Assembly: GCA_963668425.1 (NCBI GenBank)
Contig: OY764332.1
Span: 188,943-252,942 of the forward strand
DNA length: 64,000 bases
Direction of reading: 5' to 3'
Source: Minisyncoccota bacterium
GTDB lineage: Bacteria > Patescibacteriota > Minisyncoccia > Phycocordibacterales > JABAAK01
Shown one piece after another: positions 4,592-55,429 of this stretch (its first letter is position 1; each line of letters opens with the position of its first letter). Below the pieces are notes generated by a model. The model saw nothing but the letters and a program-made list of their open reading frames with translations, was not told where the DNA came from and searched no databases. Position numbers and translations under genes: made by a program.

Positions 4592-5845
4592 CTATGATAT
4601 AGCGTGTAGTAACCCTTCAACAACGGTATCCAGCATTTTTTTCTCGTCTGTCGCCCGGTCTTTGTATTCTATTTTTCCTTCTGCGCATGTTTTCTCTGAT
4701 ACTATCAATTGTTGCGGAATACCGACAATATCACTCTCAGCGAATTTTTCTCCGGCAGATATGTTTCGATCATCGTACAGCACTTCAATCTTTCGCTCGG
4801 TTAGCTGTGTGTACACATCATCTGCTGCCTTTGCTACTGTATCAGAATTTCCTAATGCAATAAGATGCACATCAAACGGCGCGATACTTGCGGGCAACAC
4901 CATCCCTGTATCTGATCCAACCATCTCAACCACAACTCCGAGCAGTCGTGCTGGGCCGATGCCATATGATCCCATATACACTGGCACTTGAGTACCCGTG
5001 CCGTCTGTATATAGTAATCCAAGCGCGTCAGAAAACCGCATTCCGAGTGTGAAAATATTCCCCACCTCACACGCAGGATGTTCCTCAAGCTCCTCCCGTT
5101 GCAATTCCAGTCGTGCAAGCACTTCATCTGTATACACTTCTTTATTTAAAGCAATCTTTTTACCTTTGTGTACATAAATAACATCCTCACCCGCAGGCAC
5201 TATGGTTTGAAACTCGTCACTGAATTCAGAAAACGCTCCTCCGCTTGCAAATGTCCGATAGGTATTTTTGCCGATACCAACCCGTTCAAACACGCGCAGA
5301 TATGCTTCCGCGCATTGTTCATAAAACACCTTGTGTTGCTCTTCATCAGTGCAAAAAGAGTATAAATCTTTCATAATAAATTCTCGTGTTCGCAAGATCC
5401 CGCTCTTTGCTCGCTCTTCATTACGAAATTTTGTTTGAAACTGATACAAATAAAATGGCACATCACGATATGAGTTGACATGCTGTCGTGCCAAATCAGT
5501 AATCGGCTCTTCGTGCGTCCATCCAAGCCCTAATTCACCGCCAACTCGTAGCTGTGTCCGAAACCACACCTCATCGGCATCACCCTTCCACCGTCCTGAC
5601 TGCTCCCACACTTCTGGATTTTGTAACCCGTTCAGCAGTACTTCCTGCCCACCGATGCTGTCCATTTCTTCACGAATAATTTTGATAATCTTATTTAATG
5701 ACCGTAATCCAAGCGGTAGAAAACTATACACTCCTGCCATTGCCTTGTGGATGTACCCTGCCCGTATCAGTAGCTGTGCATTCAGTGCCATCTCATCAAC
5801 TGGCACTTCTTTTCGCACCCGTGTCGCCAAAAATGATTGTCGCAT
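4592..5845 (-). CDS. proS: proline--tRNA ligase (compact form, no large editing insertion)
   Basis: MRQSFLATRVRKEVPVDEMALNAQLLIRAGYIHKAMAGVYSFLPLG... matches the ProRS N-terminus. Class II motif 2 is FRNEERAKSGILRTREFIMKDLYSF. The ORF track starts 6 codons upstream at 5863. Confidence 0.85.
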   Translation of the reverse strand: MRQSFLATRVRKEVPVDEMALNAQLLIRAGYIHKAMAGVYSFLPLGLRSLNKIIKIIREEMDSIGGQEVLLNGLQNPEVWEQSGRWKGDADEVWFRTQLRVGGELGLGWTHEEPITDLARQHVNSYRDVPFYLYQFQTKFRNEERAKSGILRTREFIMKDLYSFCTDEEQHKVFYEQCAEAYLRVFERVGIGKNTYRTFASGGAFSEFSDEFQTIVPAGEDVIYVHKGKKIALNKEVYTDEVLARLELQREELEEHPACEVGNIFTLGMRFSDALGLLYTDGTGTQVPVYMGSYGIGPARLLGVVVEMVGSDTGMVLPASIAPFDVHLIALGNSDTVAKAADDVYTQLTERKIEVLYDDRNISAGEKFAESDIVGIPQQLIVSEKTCAEGKIEYKDRATDEKKMLDTVVEGLLHAIS

Positions 5846-6030
5846 ATATACAAAGTATACCACCTACATGCAGTAGTAAAATTGCGTATGCTACACCATA
5901 CAATGCCTACACATCATAACCCCTTATGGCAAAGTCCGCTGTATTTTGTTATACTACAGGCAGTATCGGAAATGTTTTCCGAATTGCTATTTGTTGAGCT
6001 ATATACATCTAATTGTATTGGAGATTTGAA

Positions 6031-6768
6031 ATGATGCAAAAAAATTTTGTGGTACTTGTTGCGTTTTTGGCAGTGAATATGGTCACGCCATTTGTTGGGT
6101 ATGCGGACACTCTTGATGTGTACCTTGGTGTGTTTTCCGAAAGTAAGGGTGTTTCAGGATACCTAACACCACATTTTTCAAGTGATCCTGCTGTTGGAGG
6201 ATCTCTTGCAGCAGAGTGGCGTGAGTATGTGTTTGGTGTTGAAACCGCAAAGTTTGTCGGACTGCGCTCTATGTTAAGCACTTCTGGGCATACAACAATT
6301 TTTGTTAACACACAAAGAAAGATTCGTGGCTATGATGCGGATGTACAGTACAACTATATTCGTATGCAATCTATGATGCCGAGCTGGTGGCCGTGGAATG
6401 ATAATAACTGCCACGAAGTGGCTGTGAAAATAAGATACCCTAAAACAGATAAGTGGCATCCATATGCCCTCACTGGAATTGCAGTTGCTGAGGATGCTTG
6501 GCTGGACACCTTTACAATAGTTGGTGGGGCTGGATCTACAGCAACCTTTCCGGTTACTCAGCGTATCAACTTTGTTGTAGATGCATTTGTTGCTACCTTT
6601 TTGTTCTCAGTTAGTCAGGATTGGAAAGTTTTTGGGAAGGCGGATGGGTCTTTCTTATTTGATCTTAAAACACTACCACTCTCGTTTGAAGCCGGGTTGC
6701 ATGCATTTAAAGAGCTTGGCGATAAACACAGAACATGGACTGATCTTTCTCTGCTATACACTTTTTGA
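6031..6768 (+). CDS. secreted hypothetical protein (signal peptide)
   Basis: A GGAGAT SD lies 6 nt before ATG 6031. The N-terminus MMQKNFVVLVAFLAVNMVTPFVGYA is signal-like. An intrinsic terminator follows. Confidence 0.6.
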   Translation: MMQKNFVVLVAFLAVNMVTPFVGYADTLDVYLGVFSESKGVSGYLTPHFSSDPAVGGSLAAEWREYVFGVETAKFVGLRSMLSTSGHTTIFVNTQRKIRGYDADVQYNYIRMQSMMPSWWPWNDNNCHEVAVKIRYPKTDKWHPYALTGIAVAEDAWLDTFTIVGGAGSTATFPVTQRINFVVDAFVATFLFSVSQDWKVFGKADGSFLFDLKTLPLSFEAGLHAFKELGDKHRTWTDLSLLYTF

Positions 6769-16198: not shown

Positions 16199-16290
<92 letters not shown>

Positions 16291-18065: not shown

Positions 18066-20417
18066 TTACTCAATTTTGTATATTTTTTCTGCTACATATA
18101 TCCCTTCTTCAGTATTGGCGACAACACGAACAGTTGTTTCCTGTTCATTTTTATCCAATAACTTACTTGGATCAAAGCTCAGCATCGGCAAGTGTGATGA
18201 TCCGATAAGTGTGCCATTCACATAAAATTCATACTGTACTCTTTCTGCCGGTATTTTCTTCACTGCAATGGTGGTTATTTCATCTATATATATTTTTGAT
18301 TGTGGTGATTGTATAGAAAAGTTCTTCACCAAGCTTTCTCTGTTGCGACTATACTCCTCCTGTATCTCATTTCCCTCAAGCCAGTACTGTACTCCATACT
18401 CCCAATGCTCATACTGCGGCTCTTTAGAAGGATCATGAGCGTGCTGTGTTGGCTTATTCCTTTGAATGTAGTGCAATATTGTGTGTGGATCATCAGTATC
18501 TATCCTACCGAGCACTATATCTGGAGACAATTCTGGTGGAATGGTGTTTCGTGTAAAGTACGTCCCTTGCTCGCCATATTGCTCGGATACTGTTGTAACA
18601 ATTTGTCTTAGTAGTGGCGCAAGATGAAATCCGGCAGCGTTGTTCTCCAGCGGCGTGTTATCTGAATTCCCTGCCCACACCAGTACTACAATATCTGGAG
18701 AATATCCAACTATCCAAATATCACGAGCGTTGTTTGTGGTGCCGGTTTTTACTGCAACCGGTGGGTTGGTTATATACATTGCTGAACCCCTGCCGAACAC
18801 CGGTGCTCGTGCATCATCATCAAAGAGCATGTCAGTGATGTCTTGTGTTACATGTCGCTCCAGCACTTGTTTTTCAGATTTCTCTTCTCCATATTGCCAT
18901 ATGTACGGCACAAGCGTGCCTTCATTTGCAAATACACTATATGCCTGTGCCATTTCCAGTGGTGTTATATCTGCTCCGCCGAGTACTAAACTTAACCCGT
19001 AGTGGTTTTGGTTTTGCGTCAATGATGTGATGCCCATTTTTCTTGCCTGTTGAATTACATTTGCCACACCTGCTATATACAGCACTTTTACTGCTGGTAT
19101 GTTGATGGATTGTGCAAGCGCATCACGTAACGATATTGGTCCCACAAACCTTCCAGTGTAGTTAACTGGTGCATAACAACCGCGCTTGGTACTTTCAAAT
19201 CTATCTTTCTCACAATTCGCGTTGAATTGAGTCGGCGTATCATAAATAATAGTTTGTGGCGTGAGTCCTTTTTTAATTGCCTCTGCATATGCTATCGGTT
19301 TAAAGGTTGAGCCTGGTTGTCGAAGTGAGGTAATGATGTTTACCCGCCCGTCAATTTCATTGTCAAAGAAATCTCGCGAACCGACCATTGAAAGAACCTC
19401 GCCGGTCTTTGCTGAAAGTACGACGGATGCGATATTGCCAACCTTAAATTGCTCTTCCAGTTTTGTCTCTAAAAATTCCTGCGTCATTTTTTCAATTTCT
19501 TCCTGCATCTCAATATCAATAGTTGTTTGTACACGCTGCCCTTCAAGATTTCTCAGTCCGGCGCCATGCTCTTTTTCCAGCTGTTCTTTTGCAAAAAATA
19601 CAAAATGCGGTGCGCGGATTGAAAAGGTGTCCTGACTTTGGAAATACACCTCTTCTGCTCGTGCTCTGCGATATTCGTCCCTCGTTATTAAATTGTGTTT
19701 TAACATTAGTTGGAGTGTATGATTTTTTCTTGCCTCAAGTGCCCTTCTGTTTTGCCCATATGGTGAATAGTACGTTGGCGCTTTTGGAATTGCTGCGAGA
19801 TATGCTGACTCTGCGATTGTTAGCTCGCTTGGCTTTTTGCCGTAAAATGATTTGCTCGCTTCTGCTATACCATATGACACTCCGCCGTATGGTATGGTAT
19901 TAAGATACATCTCAAGAATTTCCTCTTTGTTTAATTGTTTCTCTAACTTTATTGCAAGTAAAAACTCTTTCATTTTTCGTTCTATTTTTTTCTCTGTGGT
20001 GAGGAATACATTTTTAATCACCTGCTGTGTGATTGTTGACCCTCCTTGGCTAAAAGACAGTGTGCGTATGTTGTTAATAAGCGCGCGTAAAAATGCATCA
20101 ATGCGAACACCGCCATGCTCAAAAAAGAGATGGTCCTCTATTGCAATGGTTGCGTTGATAACATTTTTTGATATTTCCTCATATGGAACAAAGGTTCTTT
20201 TTTCATTCACTGAAAAATCAAATAGAAACTTGTCATTCCGATCAGTCAATATGATGGACTGCTTAGATACGACGTTTTGTATGTCTACACCCGGCAGTGG
20301 GGTGAAGGTGTAAAAAAGTGTTATGTATCCTGCAGTAAAAAATGCCACTGACAGTGACAAGAGAATGATATTTTTTATTGTAAAAAAATTTTTCACAGTA
20401 TTAACAGGATACTCCAT
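18066..20417 (-). CDS. class A penicillin-binding protein (glycosyltransferase + transpeptidase) with C-terminal extension
   Basis: N-terminal TM. GT51 motifs (EDHLFFEHGGV, GGSTITQQVIKN). TP motifs (STFKP, SIN, KTGT). ~170-aa C-terminal domain of unknown function. Confidence 0.85.
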   Translation of the reverse strand: MEYPVNTVKNFFTIKNIILLSLSVAFFTAGYITLFYTFTPLPGVDIQNVVSKQSIILTDRNDKFLFDFSVNEKRTFVPYEEISKNVINATIAIEDHLFFEHGGVRIDAFLRALINNIRTLSFSQGGSTITQQVIKNVFLTTEKKIERKMKEFLLAIKLEKQLNKEEILEMYLNTIPYGGVSYGIAEASKSFYGKKPSELTIAESAYLAAIPKAPTYYSPYGQNRRALEARKNHTLQLMLKHNLITRDEYRRARAEEVYFQSQDTFSIRAPHFVFFAKEQLEKEHGAGLRNLEGQRVQTTIDIEMQEEIEKMTQEFLETKLEEQFKVGNIASVVLSAKTGEVLSMVGSRDFFDNEIDGRVNIITSLRQPGSTFKPIAYAEAIKKGLTPQTIIYDTPTQFNANCEKDRFESTKRGCYAPVNYTGRFVGPISLRDALAQSINIPAVKVLYIAGVANVIQQARKMGITSLTQNQNHYGLSLVLGGADITPLEMAQAYSVFANEGTLVPYIWQYGEEKSEKQVLERHVTQDITDMLFDDDARAPVFGRGSAMYITNPPVAVKTGTTNNARDIWIVGYSPDIVVLVWAGNSDNTPLENNAAGFHLAPLLRQIVTTVSEQYGEQGTYFTRNTIPPELSPDIVLGRIDTDDPHTILHYIQRNKPTQHAHDPSKEPQYEHWEYGVQYWLEGNEIQEEYSRNRESLVKNFSIQSPQSKIYIDEITTIAVKKIPAERVQYEFYVNGTLIGSSHLPMLSFDPSKLLDKNEQETTVRVVANTEEGIYVAEKIYKIE

Positions 20418-20906
20418 TTATCCTTGGTCCGTAAGAAATGGCACCGCCGCCAGATGAGTAATGCCAATGGCAATGGCATCATACTCATCATCATGTCGCT
20501 TCTTCTCATTTAATGCAATGAGCCGTGGCACCATACGAATAATATCTTTTTTGGTGGCGTTGCTGTTCCCGGTAATTGCGTTCTTTACCTGATTTGGTGT
20601 GTATTCAATTACCGTTAAACCATACTCTTTTGTGGTGTAGATACATACTCCGCGCACTTCTGCTGTCTGCAAGGCGGTCTTTTTATTTTTTGAAAAAAAA
20701 AGTCGTTCTATTGCTGCACAGTTCGGCTGATATGCTTGTATAATACTTCGTATCCGACCACCTATCTGGGTCAATCGGCTTTCAAATGCCGTTTCCTTCT
20801 CGGTCTCAAAACATTCTGAAAAAAGTAGGTTGGTTTTCCCGTCTTTTTTTGCTACTACTGCAAACCCTATGCGTCCGTATCCTGGATCTATGGCGAGCAC
20901 TTTCAT
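20418..20906 (-). CDS. ruvC: crossover junction endodeoxyribonuclease RuvC
   Basis: MKVLAIDPGYGRIGFAVV, RNase H-like fold. Confidence 0.85.
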   Translation of the reverse strand: MKVLAIDPGYGRIGFAVVAKKDGKTNLLFSECFETEKETAFESRLTQIGGRIRSIIQAYQPNCAAIERLFFSKNKKTALQTAEVRGVCIYTTKEYGLTVIEYTPNQVKNAITGNSNATKKDIIRMVPRLIALNEKKRHDDEYDAIAIGITHLAAVPFLTDQG

Positions 20907-32497: not shown

Positions 32498-34825
32498 TCA
32501 TCGAACCTCATACCCATTTTGTTTTAACGCCTCATACACGATGTTCATCTGCTTGTTTACCACTTCGTCGTCAAGGGTTTTGCTGTCTGACTGAAACACC
32601 AAACGGAACGCGTGTGACTGCTTGCCATCTTTTTCAAATGAATCAAACAAGTTTATTTTTTGTAAGTAGTCCCCACCGCTCTTCTGTAGCAGTGCTTCAG
32701 TGTTTGTTACGCTTGCTCCATTTGGTACAAACACTGCCACATCCCGTAATATAAATGGATACTTTGATGGTGATACATATTGCACCGTGCTGATAGGCGA
32801 TATGGTGCTGTCAGGTTTATGTACTTGCACTTCTTCCAGAGCCACCTCCCATACCCCATTTTCAAAACTGCCGGGCATGCTTACTACTTGTCGTATCATC
32901 TTTTCAATAGTAGTTATATTTGCCTTTGCTCGTCCTACTGTTTCCTGAACCCCAAGCGCAAGGTGCACTTTTTCACCCTCTTCAGTAAATATGCTTCCGA
33001 TTTCTGCGATTTGTATTGTGTCCAAACCTACTAGTTCGCCATTGTATGCATTCTGTACTAATGCTCTTTCTATTCCTGGTCGCAGTGATGACCGCAAACA
33101 CCCTTTATCTTTTGCGACTGGATAGGAGACACATATCTTATCTTTCACACAAAATGATGAGGTCATCACCTCAGAAAACCCGATTTTTTGCAGCGCTCGC
33201 AACACTAAAAATCGTTTTGTATGTGTCTCGCTGCTCTTCGGGAAAAAACGATTACGTATTTGTATCCACATTGAATGCAACCCACCACCTGTGGGTGTAG
33301 TACTTGGTATTGCATCATATCCAAGTATACGCCCTACTTCTTCAATTACATCGTTTTCATCTTGTATATCAGGCCGTTCAACTGGAACAGTAACGGCAAA
33401 TCGTTTTTTATCATCCCAAATTTGTCCGAACCCGACAATATTTTCATCAGTAATTTTAGAAATCATGACTTTTTTACCCCCTTGGGCACCAATATATGAA
33501 TCAGTGTCAAGTAGGATACCGACGTGACTTATTCCTGCGTCACTCTTTCCTGGCAGTACTGGAAACCCTTCCTCAAACACACTTTCATTGCGTGTAATTG
33601 CCTTTTTATCAGATGAAACAGAAAATACGATATCCCCTGGTTGTGGATCAGTGGTTGGTGTGGCAAAAAAGTACTGATTAATTGACATTCGTGGTATTGA
33701 CTTTCCCGCTTGCGCCGCACACCAGCATACAAATGAAGAGCAATCAAACGTGTCGGGGGCATCTCGAGAAACAGACGCACCCCATTTGTATGGTTTGCCG
33801 CTTTGTTTTTTTGCAGCTGTAATAAATTGTTTTCGTGGATCAACATATTCATATGAAAAACCGAGTCGATCCAGGACACTGGCAATTTCTTTTTGTGTGT
33901 AGGTGCTGCCAAGTAGATTATTTACTTCTGTTATTGAAACACCAGTTTTTCGTTGTTTCGGTAATGACACACGGTGGTGATCTACAGAGTTAATGATGGA
34001 GCCGTATGCACCAAACACCTCAGCCACTCGTTGTGCGGTATAGCCAATCACTACCGGAGGAAGTCCTTGCGAAAACCGTAGTGCGGCATCAGATGTGTGC
34101 CCTGTACGTCGCATTGTTCTTCGCACACTTACACTATCAAAAGAAGCGATTTCTATATATATATCTTTTGTGTTTTCATCTACTTTTGTCTTTTCTCCAC
34201 CTTTTATCCCAGCGAGTGCGATGGCACGATTGTCAGCCGCGTCAGCAATTACTACATCACCAACTTGCAATACTATCTCTTCATTGCCGAGTAGTACTAT
34301 CGTCTCTTCTTTTTGTGCCTGTCGCACTCTAAATTGTCCTGATGTTTTTTGTGCATCAAATGTGTGTATTGGTTGGCCAATGTCAAAAAGAATGTAATTT
34401 GATAAATCAACAATCGGATTGATGCATCGCTGTCCGATTGATTCAAGGTGTTTTTGTATTTCTGCCGGCGTCTCAGAAAGTGATATATTTTCAACTTTTA
34501 ATATTGTATATCTATCACATTTTTCTGTATGTATGTATTCTGCGGCACTGTTATATGAAAACTGTTCCTGAAAGTATTGCTTTTTGAGTGGTAGTGAAAA
34601 TATTGCTGCAATTTCTTTTGCAATACCGTAGTGTGCAAGGCAGTCAACAGATCGATCTGGCAGAATATCCAGTTCATACACCGCGTCATTACTGCCTGTT
34701 TTCCGCACTTCTTCTACTTCAAATGAGTGCTTTAGTAATTTTTCTGAAACCTCTTCTGGTGATGGCAATTGTTCATCAAAGAATGCTTGTAGCCATTGAT
34801 GGCTATATATACTTTTCATAGTCAA
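32498..34825 (-). CDS. pheT: phenylalanine--tRNA ligase beta subunit carrying an inserted NlpC/P60-like papain-fold domain
   Basis: Canonical PheT N-terminus (SIYSHQWLQAFF), B3/4 domain (INPIVDLSNYILFDIGQPIHTFD), B5 domain, then TVPVERPDIQDENDVIEEVGRILGYDAIP and a C-terminal FDX-ACB domain. Between B5 and TVPVERPDI sits a ~140-aa segment YKWGASVSRDAPDTFDCSSFVCWCAAQAGKSIPRMSINQ...PGDIVF...SHVGILLDTDSYIGA. Confidence 0.85.
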   Translation of the reverse strand: MTMKSIYSHQWLQAFFDEQLPSPEEVSEKLLKHSFEVEEVRKTGSNDAVYELDILPDRSVDCLAHYGIAKEIAAIFSLPLKKQYFQEQFSYNSAAEYIHTEKCDRYTILKVENISLSETPAEIQKHLESIGQRCINPIVDLSNYILFDIGQPIHTFDAQKTSGQFRVRQAQKEETIVLLGNEEIVLQVGDVVIADAADNRAIALAGIKGGEKTKVDENTKDIYIEIASFDSVSVRRTMRRTGHTSDAALRFSQGLPPVVIGYTAQRVAEVFGAYGSIINSVDHHRVSLPKQRKTGVSITEVNNLLGSTYTQKEIASVLDRLGFSYEYVDPRKQFITAAKKQSGKPYKWGASVSRDAPDTFDCSSFVCWCAAQAGKSIPRMSINQYFFATPTTDPQPGDIVFSVSSDKKAITRNESVFEEGFPVLPGKSDAGISHVGILLDTDSYIGAQGGKKVMISKITDENIVGFGQIWDDKKRFAVTVPVERPDIQDENDVIEEVGRILGYDAIPSTTPTGGGLHSMWIQIRNRFFPKSSETHTKRFLVLRALQKIGFSEVMTSSFCVKDKICVSYPVAKDKGCLRSSLRPGIERALVQNAYNGELVGLDTIQIAEIGSIFTEEGEKVHLALGVQETVGRAKANITTIEKMIRQVVSMPGSFENGVWEVALEEVQVHKPDSTISPISTVQYVSPSKYPFILRDVAVFVPNGASVTNTEALLQKSGGDYLQKINLFDSFEKDGKQSHAFRLVFQSDSKTLDDEVVNKQMNIVYEALKQNGYEVR

Positions 34826-48564: not shown

Positions 48565-50631
48565 TTATGGTGTCGGTCTTTTGTCCCGAAACCCTACCCC
48601 GTGCAATCGCACTATATCAAGCCCTCCAGTTGGTCCGGCTGTTGTCGGAAGGTGGTATCGCTCAATGTGGTCAGTATCGCTGCAAACGGTATTTAACTCT
48701 ATGCCGCTATATTGTTCTTTTGCTCCTGTCGTTGGCTCCAGGAGATACACTTCGTCAACCTTCCCAGAAATGAGCGAGGTTCCTATCACAGCTACAATAT
48801 TTTTACTTGGGTGCTTATTGGAAAGACGGTTAAAGACAACCTGCTGATCATTTTCTGCGGTTGTATCACACAAGACTCTTTGCTTGTTGTTTGGTGCCTC
48901 GTTTTTGTTGAACACTGAGATGACTGTCGCGGTATCCGATGCTCTCACACCGCTAAAATATACCAGTCGCCCATTTTTATTAATAGCTATAGGTAGGTTC
49001 CTGAAATGCAGATGATCAGTGAGTGGTGATGTATCACTTGTTGCGATTGTGGTTACTGTGGTATCAAGTATGCTGTCAATGGCACAAAGGGCGGTGCCAT
49101 CTGAGCATAGTATGGTGTATGTATTCAACCCATTGCCGTATGCAAAAATATTTCCGTTGGCAATTGCGTCACTTCGCTTTAATTTTGATGCTCTTGAGCC
49201 GGCCGATACCACGTGCTTACCGGCGCTGTCCCGATACCAGAGTGAAACTGTGTTGTTGATAACCTGCAATGCATCAAGGAATCTGAAAGACACATTGTTA
49301 ATTTCACTCGGTGTGATGTTGGTGTTGTTGTCTGGGTTTGGGTCTGGGTATATCTGTCGACAACGATTACTGGATGTGTTGTTCGGCACATACTCAAATT
49401 CACTACACCCGCCGTTAATATCACCTGAGGAGATAGGGGCGTTGCCACTGAATAGGCGAACCGTTCGATTGCCGGCAGTATTTCTGAAGTATATAAGCAC
49501 TCGATTAGCATCACTGTATATGTGTCGTACGGTGTTCTTGCTGACACCACCCTCTACGATACGGGTTGAGGAAGCATTATCAATTCTATAGAGCACACCA
49601 CTGTATGATCGTGCGTATAGGAGCCCTCCTGAAGGGTGGATGGACACAATGCTTCGCGGATCGTTTGTGCAAAAGCGACAGGTGCTGAGGTTTGACTTCC
49701 CCAGTACCCGAACAACAGCATCCTGTATCCTGGAAGACACTTTATACACCGCATCTTTTACTCCAACAGACCCGCTTGCAGTTAGCGCTTCATCTATGGA
49801 TGTCTGTGGAATGAAAAAGAGTAGTCCATTATCTCCGAGGATATAGAGCCCATCGTTAGTAAATTCAGCTGCGATTATTTTTGCACTCTCTTCACAAAAA
49901 CTATCCACAAAGGTGTTTCCTAATCCATCCCGACATACGATTTCAGCATTCTCTGGATTAGTGACGATACTGCCGTTCTCATCAAGGTACTGCCCTGACT
50001 CATCCACTCTTGGGCCATATGCATAGTGATACACAACTGAGGCATCTTCATTTTCGGAGCTGCTGACAAAGGTGCTCAGAATATTTTGACCTGGCTCAAG
50101 TATGCGGCTGGTAATCTGTGTCTTGAATGAGATTTGTTTTGTATTGCCGTCAATGACATATTCCGCATCAATTTGTGCCTGTACTCTCGGTTGCTTTGTA
50201 GTGTCATTTTCTAGTTCAAAGGAGAGGTTTGTTACCGAAACGGACTTGTCAGTAAACGGCACCCATCCATCAGAGGAGCTGCATGTATTCGGGTCTGGAT
50301 CAAATAGTTTTTTTGCTCGCTTTACCTGCTTATTTGTACTGTCATACCAAATTTTTATTCGTGCATTTAATTGATCAGTAAATGCCAGGCAGTGGCATGT
50401 GTTTCCTACCGTTTGCCCACAGGTGTAGTCATACCCGAAATAGGTCTCGCGTGATAACTCAGAGAACAGAAACCGAACGGTCTCAAGTGCAACTCTCTCA
50501 TCCTGTACCCGCACTTGCTGCCCAATAAATGTGGTAAAAAAGCTTAACATAGTGGTCAACACAATACTCGCCAATCCGATAGCGACAATGAGTTCAATGA
50601 GTGTAAAGCCCCGTGTATGTGAAGACCTCAT
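48565..50631 (-). CDS. very large type IV pilin-like protein (prepilin N-terminal methylation motif + ~650-aa domain)
   Basis: Start at Met14. RGFTLIELIVAIGLASIVLTTMLSFF is a class III signal / N-methylation site (G|FTLIE), followed by a large Cys-containing domain. Confidence 0.75.
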   Translation of the reverse strand: MRSSHTRGFTLIELIVAIGLASIVLTTMLSFFTTFIGQQVRVQDERVALETVRFLFSELSRETYFGYDYTCGQTVGNTCHCLAFTDQLNARIKIWYDSTNKQVKRAKKLFDPDPNTCSSSDGWVPFTDKSVSVTNLSFELENDTTKQPRVQAQIDAEYVIDGNTKQISFKTQITSRILEPGQNILSTFVSSSENEDASVVYHYAYGPRVDESGQYLDENGSIVTNPENAEIVCRDGLGNTFVDSFCEESAKIIAAEFTNDGLYILGDNGLLFFIPQTSIDEALTASGSVGVKDAVYKVSSRIQDAVVRVLGKSNLSTCRFCTNDPRSIVSIHPSGGLLYARSYSGVLYRIDNASSTRIVEGGVSKNTVRHIYSDANRVLIYFRNTAGNRTVRLFSGNAPISSGDINGGCSEFEYVPNNTSSNRCRQIYPDPNPDNNTNITPSEINNVSFRFLDALQVINNTVSLWYRDSAGKHVVSAGSRASKLKRSDAIANGNIFAYGNGLNTYTILCSDGTALCAIDSILDTTVTTIATSDTSPLTDHLHFRNLPIAINKNGRLVYFSGVRASDTATVISVFNKNEAPNNKQRVLCDTTAENDQQVVFNRLSNKHPSKNIVAVIGTSLISGKVDEVYLLEPTTGAKEQYSGIELNTVCSDTDHIERYHLPTTAGPTGGLDIVRLHGVGFRDKRPTP

Positions 50632-50949
50632 GTACTTATAATACCACCCTGCTGTGGTGGCATAGGACACTGTATTGCCATTATAATTAGGTAGATATAT
50701 TCTAATGTGTATGCAAAAAGGGACTTAATTTGCCCTTAAACATGCTCTGCAGTTATCAAAAAACCCTATAAAATAAGGATTTTTCTTATATTTTCTCTTA
50801 AAATTGACGAAATTTGATAAATATTGTATACTATATATAGTTTTTCTTTGACACACAATCCACATAAGGCAATCTATATCTGATACAAATGGTTGTTTTG
50901 TGTGGGTTGTGTGTTGTAATTTAACTAAATAACTAAAAAAGGAGAATGT

Positions 50950-51273
50950 ATGTTAGGAACTGGAATTTCTGTAAATGGAGAGCGTGTGTTGCTGAGCCCT
51001 GAACCTCAGGAAACGGAAGCGATTGATGGTTCCGCTGATCGTGGGATCATTTTGGTTGACAACCTCGGCAAGAGATCGGTTTTTATGCCGAAGGGCACCT
51101 CCCGGAGAGATCGTGCACGACATAGGAGCAAGAGACCGATCCGATCTTGGGTGTCCCGCTTTTGCTCAGAGGCACGTGGGCAGATATCTGCCCACACGTA
51201 CTTGCGGGTAAATGGCACTGTAACCATATATCCCGCCTCTGAAGATCTTAGACGAATGCTCCTAAGTGATTAA
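50950..51273 (+). CDS. small hypothetical protein (or non-coding structured RNA) in a GC-rich block
   Basis: AAGGAG lies 6 nt upstream of ATG 50950. The 107-aa ORF is Arg-rich, local GC is ~55-58% against ~42% for the surroundings, and a strong terminator follows. Confidence 0.3.
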   Translation: MLGTGISVNGERVLLSPEPQETEAIDGSADRGIILVDNLGKRSVFMPKGTSRRDRARHRSKRPIRSWVSRFCSEARGQISAHTYLRVNGTVTIYPASEDLRRMLLSD

Positions 51274-51308
51274 ACTTTAAAGGCAGTGAGGATTTGCCTG
51301 AAACCTCA

Positions 51309-51350
51309 ACCCAGCAGTTTACTAAACACTGCTGGGTTTTTTGTTTTTTA
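51309..51350 (+). terminator. rho-independent terminator
   Basis: aacccagcag / ctgctgggtt stem followed by ttttttgtttttt. Confidence 0.85.
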
Positions 51351-51379
51351 TACAAACTGTGCTCAGTACGTTGCTCTGT

Positions 51380-52966
51380 TTATATCGGTGGTGTTCGGTA
51401 GGTAACCGCTTCCAGAATATGATCCGGCAAAATATCTGCACTTTCCGCTAAGTCGGCAATGGTTCTTGCACATTTGATTGTGCGATGATAGCCACGTGGA
51501 GACAGTGAGAGTTTTGTTGCAGCTGATTGAAGTATAGAGACCGATTCAGATGGCATCGCAAGATGACTTTCAATAATCCGTGCATCGGCTTCACTGTTGA
51601 GATGTATGTGGGTGTTCGTATACCGATTTGCCTGTGCTTTCCGTGCTTTATGTACTGCTGCTTTGATACTGTTTGTTTTTGTGGCATCTTGTGGCACCTG
51701 CTTCTTTTCTAGTTCATCAAAGTTGCTTGCCTCCACTGCTATCCATACATCAATACGGTCGGCGATTGGTCCGGTGAGTTTTCGGCGATATGCTGTTTTT
51801 GACGATGGCGAACAAGAACATATTTTATCGGTACCTGTATTGCCGCACGGACATAGATTAAATGCAATCACCAGAGTGCATGATGCTGGGAATCTGACCG
51901 ATCCACTTGTTCTGGTGACAGTGATAGCATGCTCTTCAAGTGGCTCTCGTAGTGATTCAATAACCCGTCTATCAAACTCAGGAAACTCATCTAGGAACAG
52001 CACACCACGATGTGCAAGGGATATCTCGCCTGGACGTAGCGCTCTGCCACCACCTGTAATTGATGCATATGAAGAGGTGTGGTGTGGGTTGCGAAATGGT
52101 GGTGTACTAATCGGCTCGGAAGGGATGCTATGAGAGATTGAATGTAGAGATGTCACTTCAACACATTCATTTTTTGTGAGTGGTGGTAGGATACTGATAA
52201 GTGCTTTTGCTAGTAATGTTTTACCGGCACCTGGTGGTCCGTATAGTGCGATATTGTGTCCGCCTGCGCCGGCAACGGTAAGTGCTCGTTTCACACTTTC
52301 CTGCCCTTTTACACACTCAAAGTCAACATAGTTGTTGGTGTTTTTCTCGGGGATATATGATGGCATAGTTGGGGGTATGTTTGTCTCGGACTGCAGGTGT
52401 GCTATAACTACCTGCAACGATTTACATGGAATGATGCTTATGCCGTCAATCAGTGCTGCTTCTTTTGTATTGCCGAAAGGGATGTATACTTCTTCAAATC
52501 CATTTTTCTTTGCGTGTTGCAGGATTGGTAGTATCCCTCGTGTTGATTGAATACTGCCGTCTAATGCTAATTCGCCGATGAATAGTTTTTTCTCTGGGTT
52601 AAAATAGAGTTTTTTTATGGCAAGTAAATAGGTGAGGGCGACTGGAACATCAAATAGCGTGCCGGTTTTTTTCAGATCACCTGGTGCAAGTGAGACAACA
52701 ATTTTATGATTTTGTTGTTTTGGTGAGATGAGTCCAGAATGTTTGATTGCCGCGGCTACTCGTTCTCGTGCCTCATCAACTGCTTTATCAGGCAGCCCGA
52801 TGATGGAGAATGTATGAATACCGGGGGAGATATCAACCTCAACTCGCACTGTTTGTGCTGCCAGAGATATTCGTTGGGCACTGTAGGTGTATGCGTGTGT
52901 TGTGTTTTGTGTATTTTTTTTCACATACTCACTATAGTACAGTCGCGTGAAAAAGTAAAAAATCAC
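51380..52966 (-). CDS. comM: YifB/ComM family Mg-chelatase-like AAA+ ATPase (competence protein ComM)
   Basis: N-terminal Lon-protease-like domain (VEVDISPGIHTFSIIGLPDKAVDEARERV). Walker A (IALYGPPGAGKTLLA), Walker B (VLFLDEFPEF). The start codon is uncertain. Confidence 0.8.
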   Translation of the reverse strand: MIFYFFTRLYYSEYVKKNTQNTTHAYTYSAQRISLAAQTVRVEVDISPGIHTFSIIGLPDKAVDEARERVAAAIKHSGLISPKQQNHKIVVSLAPGDLKKTGTLFDVPVALTYLLAIKKLYFNPEKKLFIGELALDGSIQSTRGILPILQHAKKNGFEEVYIPFGNTKEAALIDGISIIPCKSLQVVIAHLQSETNIPPTMPSYIPEKNTNNYVDFECVKGQESVKRALTVAGAGGHNIALYGPPGAGKTLLAKALISILPPLTKNECVEVTSLHSISHSIPSEPISTPPFRNPHHTSSYASITGGGRALRPGEISLAHRGVLFLDEFPEFDRRVIESLREPLEEHAITVTRTSGSVRFPASCTLVIAFNLCPCGNTGTDKICSCSPSSKTAYRRKLTGPIADRIDVWIAVEASNFDELEKKQVPQDATKTNSIKAAVHKARKAQANRYTNTHIHLNSEADARIIESHLAMPSESVSILQSAATKLSLSPRGYHRTIKCARTIADLAESADILPDHILEAVTYRTPPI

Positions 52967-54808: not shown

Positions 54809-55429
54809 ATGTTTCAATACAAAAAAGCAGTCCAAGTACTTAATTTTTTTGCTCGCAAGGCAGAGGAGGAGGGGGTTTCGCTGTATAAGACGAATATGCT
54901 GAAGTTGGTATACTTTGCTGACAAAAAACACCTCAGGGAATCATTGCGGACTATTACCGCGGACAGTTATATTGCAAAACAGAAGGGACCTGTGGCACGA
55001 GATACCTGCGCCCTCATTGAAACTCAGGCAGGTACTACAGAACAGGAATCGGAAACTGTGCAATATGCGAATACATTTATTATTTCTGAGGAAAAATGGC
55101 GACCATGGAATAGGAAAAAAGGTATAAAAATAATGTCAAAAAAGGAAGTTGATAAAAAGGTGCTTTCAGCGTCAGACATAGAAACACTTACTTTTATATG
55201 GAGTGTATGCAAAGCGGACTTGCGGGACTTATGGAAAAAAACTCATTTATATCCGGAAGGGAAAAAAGCAGAGGGAGGGAGGGCATGGGCGGAAATTAAG
55301 GAAGAAGAGCTTTTCAGTACAATTGAGAATGATCCACTCGGTGAGCAAACTGTTGCAGAGATTAAAAATGCTGAAGAGTTGTACCGAGAGCGGAAGGAGG
55401 CGAAAATGGCATTCGGAATAACAACCTAA
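54809..55429 (+). CDS. Panacea/DUF4065-domain protein (SocA/GepA-like putative antitoxin)
   Basis: MLKLVYFADKKHLRESLRTITADSYIAKQKGPVARDTCALIE fits the DUF4065 core (KLqKLLYyA...GPV). Confidence 0.65.
   Translation: MFQYKKAVQVLNFFARKAEEEGVSLYKTNMLKLVYFADKKHLRESLRTITADSYIAKQKGPVARDTCALIETQAGTTEQESETVQYANTFIISEEKWRPWNRKKGIKIMSKKEVDKKVLSASDIETLTFIWSVCKADLRDLWKKTHLYPEGKKAEGGRAWAEIKEEELFSTIENDPLGEQTVAEIKNAEELYRERKEAKMAFGITT

Follow-up and report, generated by a model that had tools for sequence, protein, structure and literature searches.

The region at positions 50680-51380 of a 64,000-nt stretch of contig OY764332.1 from a Minisyncoccota bacterium (hereafter the window, whose positions are used as coordinates throughout) lies between a pilin-like gene and comM, both on the minus strand, and holds a small gene on the plus strand that is convergent with comM (51383-52966, stop at 51380). 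This small gene encodes a basic protein of 107 amino acids (aa) and would form one small transcription unit, made of a promoter, a 25-bp leader stem-loop, a Shine-Dalgarno (SD) sequence and ATG, a 107-codon open reading frame (ORF), and an intrinsic terminator that lies 31 nt from the comM stop. Across nine homologous sequences, that of the window being counted as one of them, the coding sequence folds more stably than its own synonymous recodings and does so through stems that recur at equivalent codons, a pattern that we interpret as a probable double constraint on protein and RNA structure.

A protein gene of a small orphan family

Comparison of the nine homologous ORFs shows computationally that the sequence is coding and under purifying selection, and the ORF is almost certainly a genuine protein gene. 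Frame +1 is the sole frame open in all nine, indels relative to locus L001 are all in frame (6, 9, and 6 nt), and third codon positions changed about twice as often as positions 1 and 2 (e.g., 31/23/58 changes at positions 1, 2, and 3 in a pairwise comparison), with a ratio of non-synonymous to synonymous substitution rates (dN/dS) of 0.16-0.23 wherever dS was unsaturated. An overlapping antisense gene was considered and rejected, frame -1 being open throughout in just four of the nine ORFs. The perfect AAGGAG ahead of ATG 50950 that had been read from the sequence in a preliminary description of this DNA was confirmed, and SD-like purine runs (GGAGG/GGGGG) precede the aligned starts in L001, L003, and L004. 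At L001, the aligned start is ATG 10166, preceded by AAGGGGGAAG, and the public 161-aa gene call (P0002, L001 10001-10486) is over-extended by 55 codons, illustrating how gene callers run this ORF upstream through the leader hairpin.

The protein family is small and narrowly distributed. It was searched among ~15 billion public proteins, with nine members in total: a word-indexed search of 5.8 billion protein clusters returned just one relative besides the protein itself, an exhaustive HMMER profile search over 1.84 billion representatives yielded four clusters, and with a second profile round the family grew to nine members of 94-133 aa. The homologue at L005 carries a 27-residue C-terminal extension. 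Family members have isoelectric points (pI) of 9.1-10.9 and grand averages of hydropathy (GRAVY) of -0.4 to -0.8, and their charge is unevenly spread, the N-terminal 40 residues being acidic or neutral and residues 41-80 carrying a net charge of +7 to +11, with a central basic stretch that includes the motif (S/T)R(K/R)(E/D)RAR. AlphaFold2, run on the nine-sequence alignment, predicts a beta-beta-beta-beta-alpha-alpha-beta-beta-alpha topology (predicted local distance difference test score, pLDDT, 81.6; predicted template-modelling score, pTM, 0.72), with the lowest confidence on the basic segment 51-60. In line with the earlier remark that the peptide has no recognisable family, searches of Pfam (E up to 10), NCBIfam, PHROGs (E up to 1), and PADLOC gave zero family matches for the 107-aa protein, and a PDB profile search found no relative. 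The gene adds a confidently modelled, fold-orphan family of small basic proteins beside pilus and competence genes.

Stem-loops along the coding sequence

The hairpin-rich appearance of the region that first drew attention to it was borne out by folding. The predicted transcript (50850-51350) is far more stable than its dinucleotide shuffles (z = -8.3), as is the corresponding transcript of L003 (z = -15.3), and in a scan of 425 windows of 300 nt the region holds four of the seven most negative folding z-scores. Other low-z 300-nt windows in the plus-strand scan were 20401-20700 (-5.05), 33151-33450 (-4.94), and 6001-6300 (-3.80), none of which has an Rfam match; of these, 20401-20700 and 33151-33450 fall within long minus-strand ORFs or at their junction (18066-20417/20418-20906 and 32498-34825).

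We then compared each ORF with synonymous-codon shuffles, in which codons are permuted among positions encoding the same amino acid (100 shuffles per ORF). All nine homologues fold more stably than their own synonymous recodings, as shown computationally by z-scores of minimum free energy (MFE) of -3.5 for the window and -4.2, -8.8, -4.5, -4.5, -5.5, -4.6, -6.9, and -4.9 for the others, and in no case was any of the 100 shuffles as stable as the real ORF. The same procedure applied to 22 control chunks of 321 nt from neighbouring genes (comM, the pilin-like gene, dus, two hypothetical genes, an ORF with a Panacea domain, and the ORF just downstream of dus) gave a mean z of -0.34, with a standard deviation of 0.85 and a minimum of -1.94.

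The excess stability is accompanied by covariation. On the codon alignment, the RNAalifold consensus reached -27.8 kcal/mol, compared to -5.2 ± 2.7 kcal/mol for codon-column shuffles, and the RNAalifold z-score for the nine sequences was -7.3 (-6.1 on gap-free columns). Compensatory double changes were counted at 23-24 pairs, where codon-column shuffles gave 6.7 ± 3.2 and slid controls gave 5-10, and sliding the 3' partners by 1-3 columns lowered pairing from 86% to 40-52%. Alignments of comM, the pilin-like gene, and the hypothetical genes gave z-scores between -2.6 and +1.5 in the same test, save for two windows that are weighed below. The preliminary description had named clear codon periodicity without compensatory base-pair changes as the mark of a plain protein gene; the periodicity is indeed clear, but compensatory changes are abundant alongside it.

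In the computed folds the sense strand has an advantage, which is clear-cut for the leader hairpin only, since the antisense strand of the ORFs is significantly structured too. The sense MFE is lower than the antisense MFE in 9/9 ORFs, and in eight of them G.U pairs are 2-5 times commoner in the sense fold (the exception being L004). When each strand was set against matched nulls, the sense z-score was the more negative in all nine ORFs and the sense energy excess was the larger in eight.

Six stem regions, a-f, recur at equivalent codons (Table 1), with arm sequences that vary and complementarity that is kept. Stem a is present in 7/9 ORFs, the exceptions being L004 and L007 with a weak stem or none; its arms are GACGGCUCCGC / GCGGAGUCGUC in L003 and GGUGAUGCCG / CGGCAUCAUC in L001, and an Ile-to-Val replacement in one arm (AUC to GUC) is compensated in the other by the synonymous change of GAU to GAC. 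Counterparts of stem b span 23 bp in L003 (GGUUGACAACUUGGGGCAAAGA / UCUUUGUCCCCAAGUUGUCAACC) and 15 bp in L004 (ACCUGCGGGAAGAGA with UCUUUUCCCUUGCAGGU); through this pairing, the peptides NL...PKL and TC...LAG are therefore coupled at the level of bases. The codons of stem c form a strong hairpin in L003, L006, L007, and L088 as well, and an equivalent of stem d, 6-8 bp long, occurs in 8/9 ORFs, L001 folding a shifted stem. In stem e, codons 87 and 94 covary as GUA/UAU (Val/Tyr), GUG/CAU or GUG/CAC (Val/His), and GAA/UUU (Glu/Phe), a pairing that holds in eight of the nine sequences. The equivalent of stem f reaches -14 to -21 kcal/mol in L003, L004, L005, L006, and L088; here GAGGAG (Glu-Glu) pairs with CUCCUC (Leu-Leu), and in L005 CAAGAG pairs with UUUUUG. 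These examples imply that non-synonymous substitutions join RNA-type compensation. Overall, the recurrence of the stems at equivalent codons, and their maintenance by compensatory substitutions of which some change amino acids, are shown computationally.

Table 1 Features of the small gene and its flanks, in window coordinates
Feature	Position	Strand	Description
Sigma-70-type promoter (predicted)	50804..50832	+	TTGACG (50804-50809), 17-nt spacer, TATACT (50827-50832)
5' leader stem-loop	50850..50915	+	25 bp, G.U-rich, about -35 kcal/mol, z -7.3 to -7.5
Shine-Dalgarno	50939..50944	+	AAGGAG, 5 nt before ATG 50950, read from sequence
Coding sequence	50950..51273	+	107-aa basic protein, pI 10.4, arginine-rich centre; stop codon 51271-51273
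Stem a	51025..51051	+	11 bp; codons D26-I34 (DGSADRGII); GAUGGUUCCGC / GUGGGAUCAUU
GATC cluster	51037..51146	none	Six sites; genome-specific, not counted as a functional part
Stem b	51063..51094	+	Codons N38-G49 (NLGKRSVFMPKG); compensatory amino-acid-changing substitutions
Stem c (composite)	51093..51156	+	K48-S69, arginine-rich segment; two GATC as paired arms
Stem d	51176..51195	+	Palindrome GTGGGCAGAT/ATCTGCCCAC; codons R76-H82 (RGQISAH)
Stem e	51204..51236	+	Best conserved; codons R86-P95 (RVNGTVTIYP)
Stem f	51238..51252	+	SEDL...LL; weak in the window, -1 kcal/mol
Intrinsic terminator	51308..51349	+	11-bp perfect stem 51308-51318 / 51328-51338, then TTTTTTGTTTTTT (U6GU6)

The predicted promoter matches the consensus at 10 of 12 positions in a consensus scan, with a predicted transcription start at ~50839-50841, and ATTGAC...TATACT is kept in the window, L001, L003, L004, L006, L007, and L088; the promoter persists at every locus whose upstream region is intact. 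The TTGACA at 50848-50853, earlier noted in the AT-rich leader, is not part of this promoter but the foot of the leader hairpin. A promoter scan of 50500-51500 found no promoter on the minus strand. The leader hairpin is strongly sense-specific, folding to -35.9 kcal/mol on the plus strand vs -19.6 on the minus strand in the window, with -38.6 vs -16.8 and -31.8 vs -20.2 kcal/mol in further comparisons, and its stem is kept in five of the nine loci (the window, L001, L006, L007, and L088) with three compensatory pairs and invariant G.U pairs. A U-run follows the stem in L001 and L088, where the leader is terminator-like. At L003, the 5' arm alone is retained and another hairpin precedes the SD, while L004 and L005 carry short, unrelated hairpins; at L005, an insertion sequence (IS) element (4965-5909, with an rve integrase-type transposase and helix-turn-helix domains) sits between the pilin-like gene and the small gene and replaces the usual leader. 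The idea that the leader is a repeated or mobile hairpin element was discarded, its arm being found once in the window. At the other end of the gene, the clean intrinsic terminator of the preliminary description was confirmed, and it recurs at each of the five aligned loci, L005 showing two compensatory pairs.

The divergent promoter region contains a further palindrome (AAAAAACCCTATAAAATAAGGATTTTT, 50758-50784), ~20 nt ahead of the -35 box. It is conserved in six loci and perfect in L001 (AAAAACCTTATAAAATAAGGTTTTT); it might serve as a weak bidirectional terminator or as an operator bound by a dimeric regulator. The palindrome is covered by a sub-threshold match to the rimP leader (30.4 bits vs 47) on the minus strand at 50714-50816, the best of the chance matches returned by a permissive Rfam scan of 50600-51500. 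At gathering thresholds, an Rfam scan of the whole window found a tRNA-Ser only, at 16202-16290; this tRNA-Ser(GGA), with full coordinates 16199-16290, is the sole Rfam-level RNA gene in the window; ARAGORN found no transfer-messenger RNA (tmRNA), and RNase P was likewise not found with Rfam or ARAGORN.

Several compositional features had also been pointed out, of which the GATC cluster and the perfect palindrome proved specific to this genome. The GATC sites are located as described, at 51037, 51045, 51074, 51109, 51138, 51143, and 51244, the first six within 107 nt and forming the densest cluster of the window (any other 125-nt stretch holds at most three), with an overall GATC frequency across the window of 2.9 per kb, which is not unusual. 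All sites of the ORF are inside the coding sequence, in all three codon phases and none in the promoter, and six homologous ORFs that were checked carry 1, 1, 3, 0, 0, and 0 sites vs 7 here. GC content is raised as reported relative to the window average of 42.3%, to 51-54% rather than 55-58%: 50.6% for the ORF, 52.5% for 51000-51260 (the 99.6th percentile of 260-nt windows), and 54.5% for the best 200 nt. A GC excess of +4 to +9 points was also seen in the small gene of six homologues checked. The perfect palindrome described as 16 nt long is present and nested in a CCCGC...GCGGG stem, as stated, but extends to 20 nt (stem d); it is perfect in this genome only, and the matching L001 segment has a z of +0.46 vs shuffles. 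The repeat GCAAGAGA(T/C)CG does occur in two copies, at 51068 and 51128 (GCAAGAGATCG / GCAAGAGACCG). Eye-catching GATC and palindrome features of this kind can thus be strain-specific by-products of stem arms.

Divergence, distribution, and genomic neighbourhood

The small gene is the fastest evolving of its neighbourhood, and its folding is nevertheless kept. Identity to the window protein is 36-63% among its homologues, compared to 81-88% for ComM, 79-89% for Dus, 72-83% for the pilin-like protein, and 65-81% for a 272-aa protein. The mean proportion of non-synonymous differences (pN) is 0.375, vs 0.08-0.15 in the neighbours, and divergence at four-fold sites is raised as well (0.625 vs 0.40-0.51), with synonymous sites saturated at a proportion of synonymous differences (pS) of 0.74.

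Gene order around the small gene is stable. Dus, a hypothetical protein of 250-280 aa, and the pilin-like protein (all on the minus strand), the small gene (plus strand), and comM (minus strand) follow one another in seven related loci, and the small gene sits between the pilin-like gene and comM in all eight loci with enough flank, L003 ending at a contig edge with its downstream side alone visible. The ninth member, L089, is a 1.4-kb contig that starts ~30 nt upstream of the ORF and holds only the ORF and the convergent downstream gene. Scans of GTDB species genomes, JGI (Joint Genome Institute) metagenomes, and IMG/VR with patterns, tblastn, and the family alignment gave zero further relatives, a tblastn search of phage and plasmid records (INPHARED, PLSDB) gave none, and the family profile hidden Markov model (HMM) had no match on 80 comM loci of more distant Patescibacteria, from which we conclude that the family is confined to a single narrow clade that has been poorly sampled. 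Since the GC excess is shared and phage, plasmid, and viral relatives are absent from the collections searched, recent horizontal acquisition is unsupported: the suggestion of a horizontally acquired small gene holds as far as the small protein gene goes, but its fixed place in 8/8 loci speaks against a recent arrival, and its absence from the more distant Patescibacteria marks it as lineage-specific. The lineage itself seems to be missing from the GTDB species-representative set, in which the closest ComM among 185,579 representatives (release 232) is ~51% identical, vs 81-88% in the related assemblies used here; these ~51% matches come from Patescibacteria metagenome-assembled genomes (MAGs) labelled Nomurabacteria, Paceibacterota, or 'Saccharibacteria'.

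At the more distant loci, strong folding is frequent in the first 450 nt beyond comM, with a mean z of -2.3 and values as low as -15. L074 has a non-coding array of four perfect hairpins with stems of 13-22 bp (5468-5917) between comM and a convergent M23-peptidase-like gene, and L017, L025, L055, and L078 carry inverted repeats with 18-24-nt arms just after comM. None of these hairpins matches Rfam. A wider class of structured small genes next to comM was considered and set aside, the strong folds of the distant loci being non-coding terminator-type hairpins. They hint that the ORF could have arisen from a hairpin array of this kind.

Among the flanking genes, the pilin-like gene encodes ~690 aa on the minus strand with a type IV pilin N-terminus, MRSSHTRGFTLIELIV. 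Its mechanical ORF is 48565-50670 (-), with a GTG start at 50670; the N-terminus MRSSHTRGFTLIELIVAIGLAS, a typical prepilin leader with a hydrophobic helix, is kept in six relatives, and the true start is therefore probably ATG 50631. Further away, a 206-aa ORF at 54809-55429 (+) contains a SocA/Panacea antitoxin domain (Pfam PF13274, E = 1e-11) and has a counterpart at the same place in L003 and none in L001, L004, or L088, which suggests a variable insertion of toxin-antitoxin type between a 570-aa hypothetical gene and PNPase. Across the window (1-64000), cumulative GC skew declines steadily until ~46-50 kb, where it has a shallow minimum, and then climbs slightly. A replication origin was considered there and rejected: DnaA boxes number 17 vs 20.7 expected and are unclustered, and gene strand does not switch.

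Interpretation and comparison with known systems

The explanation that we favour, with a probability of roughly 60%, is that of a translated small gene with a heavily structured mRNA under double constraint, in which the bases of the ORF would be selected both for the protein and for a sense RNA folded as a series of about six stem-loops. The broader proposition, that some selected RNA or nucleic-acid structure is overlaid on a protein gene, is very probable. What the stems do is a separate matter, and a role in cis, in mRNA stability or translation, can be put forward tentatively. Bacterial transcripts face 5'-end-dependent and single-strand-specific RNases, and those that open with a long stem, are largely paired along their length, and close with a terminator hairpin are expected to be long-lived. 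In the small gene, the 5' stem-loop, the near-fully paired body, and the terminator hairpin may together shield the transcript from such RNases, and the outcome would be a message that is long-lived or tightly dosed. The first ~10 codons are A+U-rich, which would suit ribosome loading. The leader stem could in addition gate read-through or translation, or attenuate transcription, a gating of read-through being conceivable because a U-run follows this stem in two relatives.

The protein is most likely a nucleic-acid binder, judging from its basic centre and the (S/T)R(K/R)(E/D)RAR motif. That it binds the hairpins of its own mRNA, in an autoregulatory manner, is a rather unlikely extension of this idea. 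Slightly less likely still is a self-referential RNA-protein module, born de novo from the post-comM hairpins, in which stems and protein elements co-evolve and the product binds its own message or leader terminator and so sets its own level; if true, this would be a natural bacterial gene written wholly in two interlocked codes, and a case of gene birth from palindromic intergenic DNA.

Several observations weigh against a double constraint or limit how far it can be taken. First, two gap-rich N-terminal control windows reach RNAalifold z-scores of -4.8 and -5.4, so that the statistic must be regarded as fat-tailed. The RNAalifold structure and the pair counts derive from the same alignment, a circularity mitigated by the shuffle nulls, and the nine sequences come from one narrow clade, which means that the covariation counts rest on few independent events. 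Second, the antisense strand too scores z-scores of -3 to -8.4; symmetric Watson-Crick pairing accounts for the bulk of the excess stability, to which a sense-specific part is added, and a DNA-level or antisense explanation keeps some probability. Third, the leader hairpin is absent or replaced in three of the eight examinable loci (L003, L004, and L005), and sequestration of the SD by the first 10 nt of the transcript, which was entertained as a mechanism, is predicted in the window and not in L001, i.e., it is unconserved. Finally, homology searches of the 107-aa protein yield no support for any biochemical function.

The best-surviving alternative, although unlikely, is that of a plain orphan protein gene in which the hairpins are a relic or by-product without RNA-level function. 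They could be inherited from terminator-type hairpins arrayed beyond comM, out of which the ORF was born, or be generated continually by quasi-palindrome (template-switch) mutation, which perfects imperfect inverted repeats and also speeds sequence change. The folded stretches after comM in distant Patescibacteria, with the L074 array and the long-armed repeats, would fit the first route. Substitution rates raised even at four-fold sites, a perfect stem that differs from one homologue to the next (the 20-nt palindrome here, 23 bp in L003, 10 bp in L001), the significant structure of the antisense strand, and the confinement of the family to one clade also favour this explanation. However, relic hairpins would be expected to decay, yet a large folding excess persists in all nine ORFs at saturating synonymous divergence. 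Many stems contain wobble pairs and bulges and are not perfect palindromes, and the sense bias of G.U pairs and stability, seen in 8-9 of nine ORFs, would not come from DNA-templated repair.

An improbable second alternative is a dual-function RNA or ribonucleoprotein, in which the transcript itself works as a regulatory, scaffold, or decoy RNA or as an RNase III substrate, possibly with its own product. The folding is extreme for an mRNA in both the window and L003, a short RNA could be released at the leader hairpin and U-run of L001 and L088, and the basic centre of the protein appears to resemble arginine-rich RNA-hairpin-binding peptides. Against this, we see no conserved single-stranded seed or loop beyond amino-acid demands, no Rfam relative, and no known target or partner, and the rapid turnover of the arms fits structure kept for its own sake and not specific RNA-RNA recognition.

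Inverted repeats acting at the DNA level, as cruciforms, as single-strand hairpins in replication or natural transformation, or as protein-binding palindromes, are very unlikely. Significant structure on both strands, the competence- and pilus-related neighbours (comM and the pilin-like gene), and the conserved palindrome upstream of the promoter would agree with such a role. However, the stems are located in a translated ORF, with a register that varies from homologue to homologue, neither a repeated uptake-type motif nor a DnaA-box cluster was found, and the leader hairpin needs G.U pairs. Because a sense-specific component, seen in 9/9 ORFs, comes on top of the symmetric pairing, an RNA-level reading is favoured over a DNA-level one.

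The two remaining alternatives, both raised in the preliminary description, are effectively excluded. A methylation-sensitive regulatory element (Dam/GATC) has the densest GATC cluster of the window in its favour, but is unsupported because cluster and perfect palindrome are specific to this genome: homologous ORFs carry 0-3 sites, two sites simply form the paired arms of stem c, the overall GATC rate is ordinary, and the sites are intragenic, unlike the conserved GATC in regulatory sites of methylation switches of the pap, agn43, or oriC type. A non-coding structured small RNA (sRNA) with a chance ORF could explain the strong folding and the empty protein-family searches, and its structured part stands in the form of conserved stem-loops over the coding sequence; its non-coding part is contradicted by codon-periodic divergence, in-frame indels, a conserved SD and ATG, a frame open in all nine ORFs, and a confident AlphaFold model, with no Rfam match to speak for it.

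Among known systems, type I toxin-antitoxin mRNAs (hok/sok, symE/symR) share with the gene described here a small size, a heavily folded mRNA, and, in the window only, possible SD occlusion. They differ in encoding a short membrane peptide in place of a hydrophilic product of 94-133 aa, and the small gene is single-copy with fixed synteny; PADLOC and Pfam gave no match, and at the sequence level neither an antisense RNA gene nor, in the promoter scan of 50500-51500, an antisense promoter was found. Arginine-rich-motif binders (lambda/P22 N, HIV Rev/Tat) present an apparent resemblance in their small size (~100 aa), basic character, and a stretch of the (S/T)R(K/R)(E/D)RAR kind, and in being encoded beside RNA hairpins, which in some relatives of the small gene include one that looks terminator-like. 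In the protein studied here, however, the motif is central, not N-terminal, and the chain is predicted to be folded (beta-rich), not disordered; Pfam and PHROG searches returned no match, and no boxB-type loop was identified.

At the RNA level, a long stem ~10 nt from the predicted 5' end recalls the leaders of E. coli ompA and B. subtilis aprE and ermC, and the canonical G+C stem and U-run at the 3' end of the small gene is that of intrinsic terminators. mRNAs of the ompA/aprE/ermC type are not paired throughout the coding region, and the 25-bp G.U-rich leader is unusual. S. aureus RNAIII/hld, SgrS/SgrT, and SR1/SR1P are dual-function bacterial sRNAs that also code for a protein. AzuCR/AzuC is another such dual-function (coding) sRNA (PMC8915982). 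As in all four, the small gene would give a short transcript with its own promoter and terminator that is both translated and highly structured. In those sRNAs, however, the ORF has 26-43 codons and is a minor part of the RNA, and regulation resides in conserved single-stranded seeds, whereas here the ORF has 107 codons and makes up about two-thirds of the predicted transcript, the structure is inside the ORF, and no conserved seed is visible.

In the distribution of structure there is a likeness to RNA phages and viruses such as MS2 and Qbeta, in which stem-loops pervade the coding sequence and compensatory changes affect both synonymous and non-synonymous sites, but here this is found in a single chromosomal gene of a DNA genome, with fixed synteny and without replicase or capsid context or any relative in viral collections. 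Bacterial coding regions are usually taken as free of strong RNA-structure constraint, save for start-site accessibility, frameshift signals, and attenuators. Conservation of stems over a whole cellular bacterial gene, with compensation at the amino-acid level, is unusual: a complete gene retains about six stems through saturating divergence, and amino-acid replacements join base-pair compensation. If the stems are functional, the gene would offer a compact natural system for the mutual constraint of protein and RNA-structure codes, a way to learn how the ultra-small Patescibacteria build very stable mRNAs, and possibly an example of a new gene from palindromic intergenic DNA. Structured mRNAs and dual-constraint mRNAs are themselves already known; here such an mRNA would belong to a new orphan protein family.

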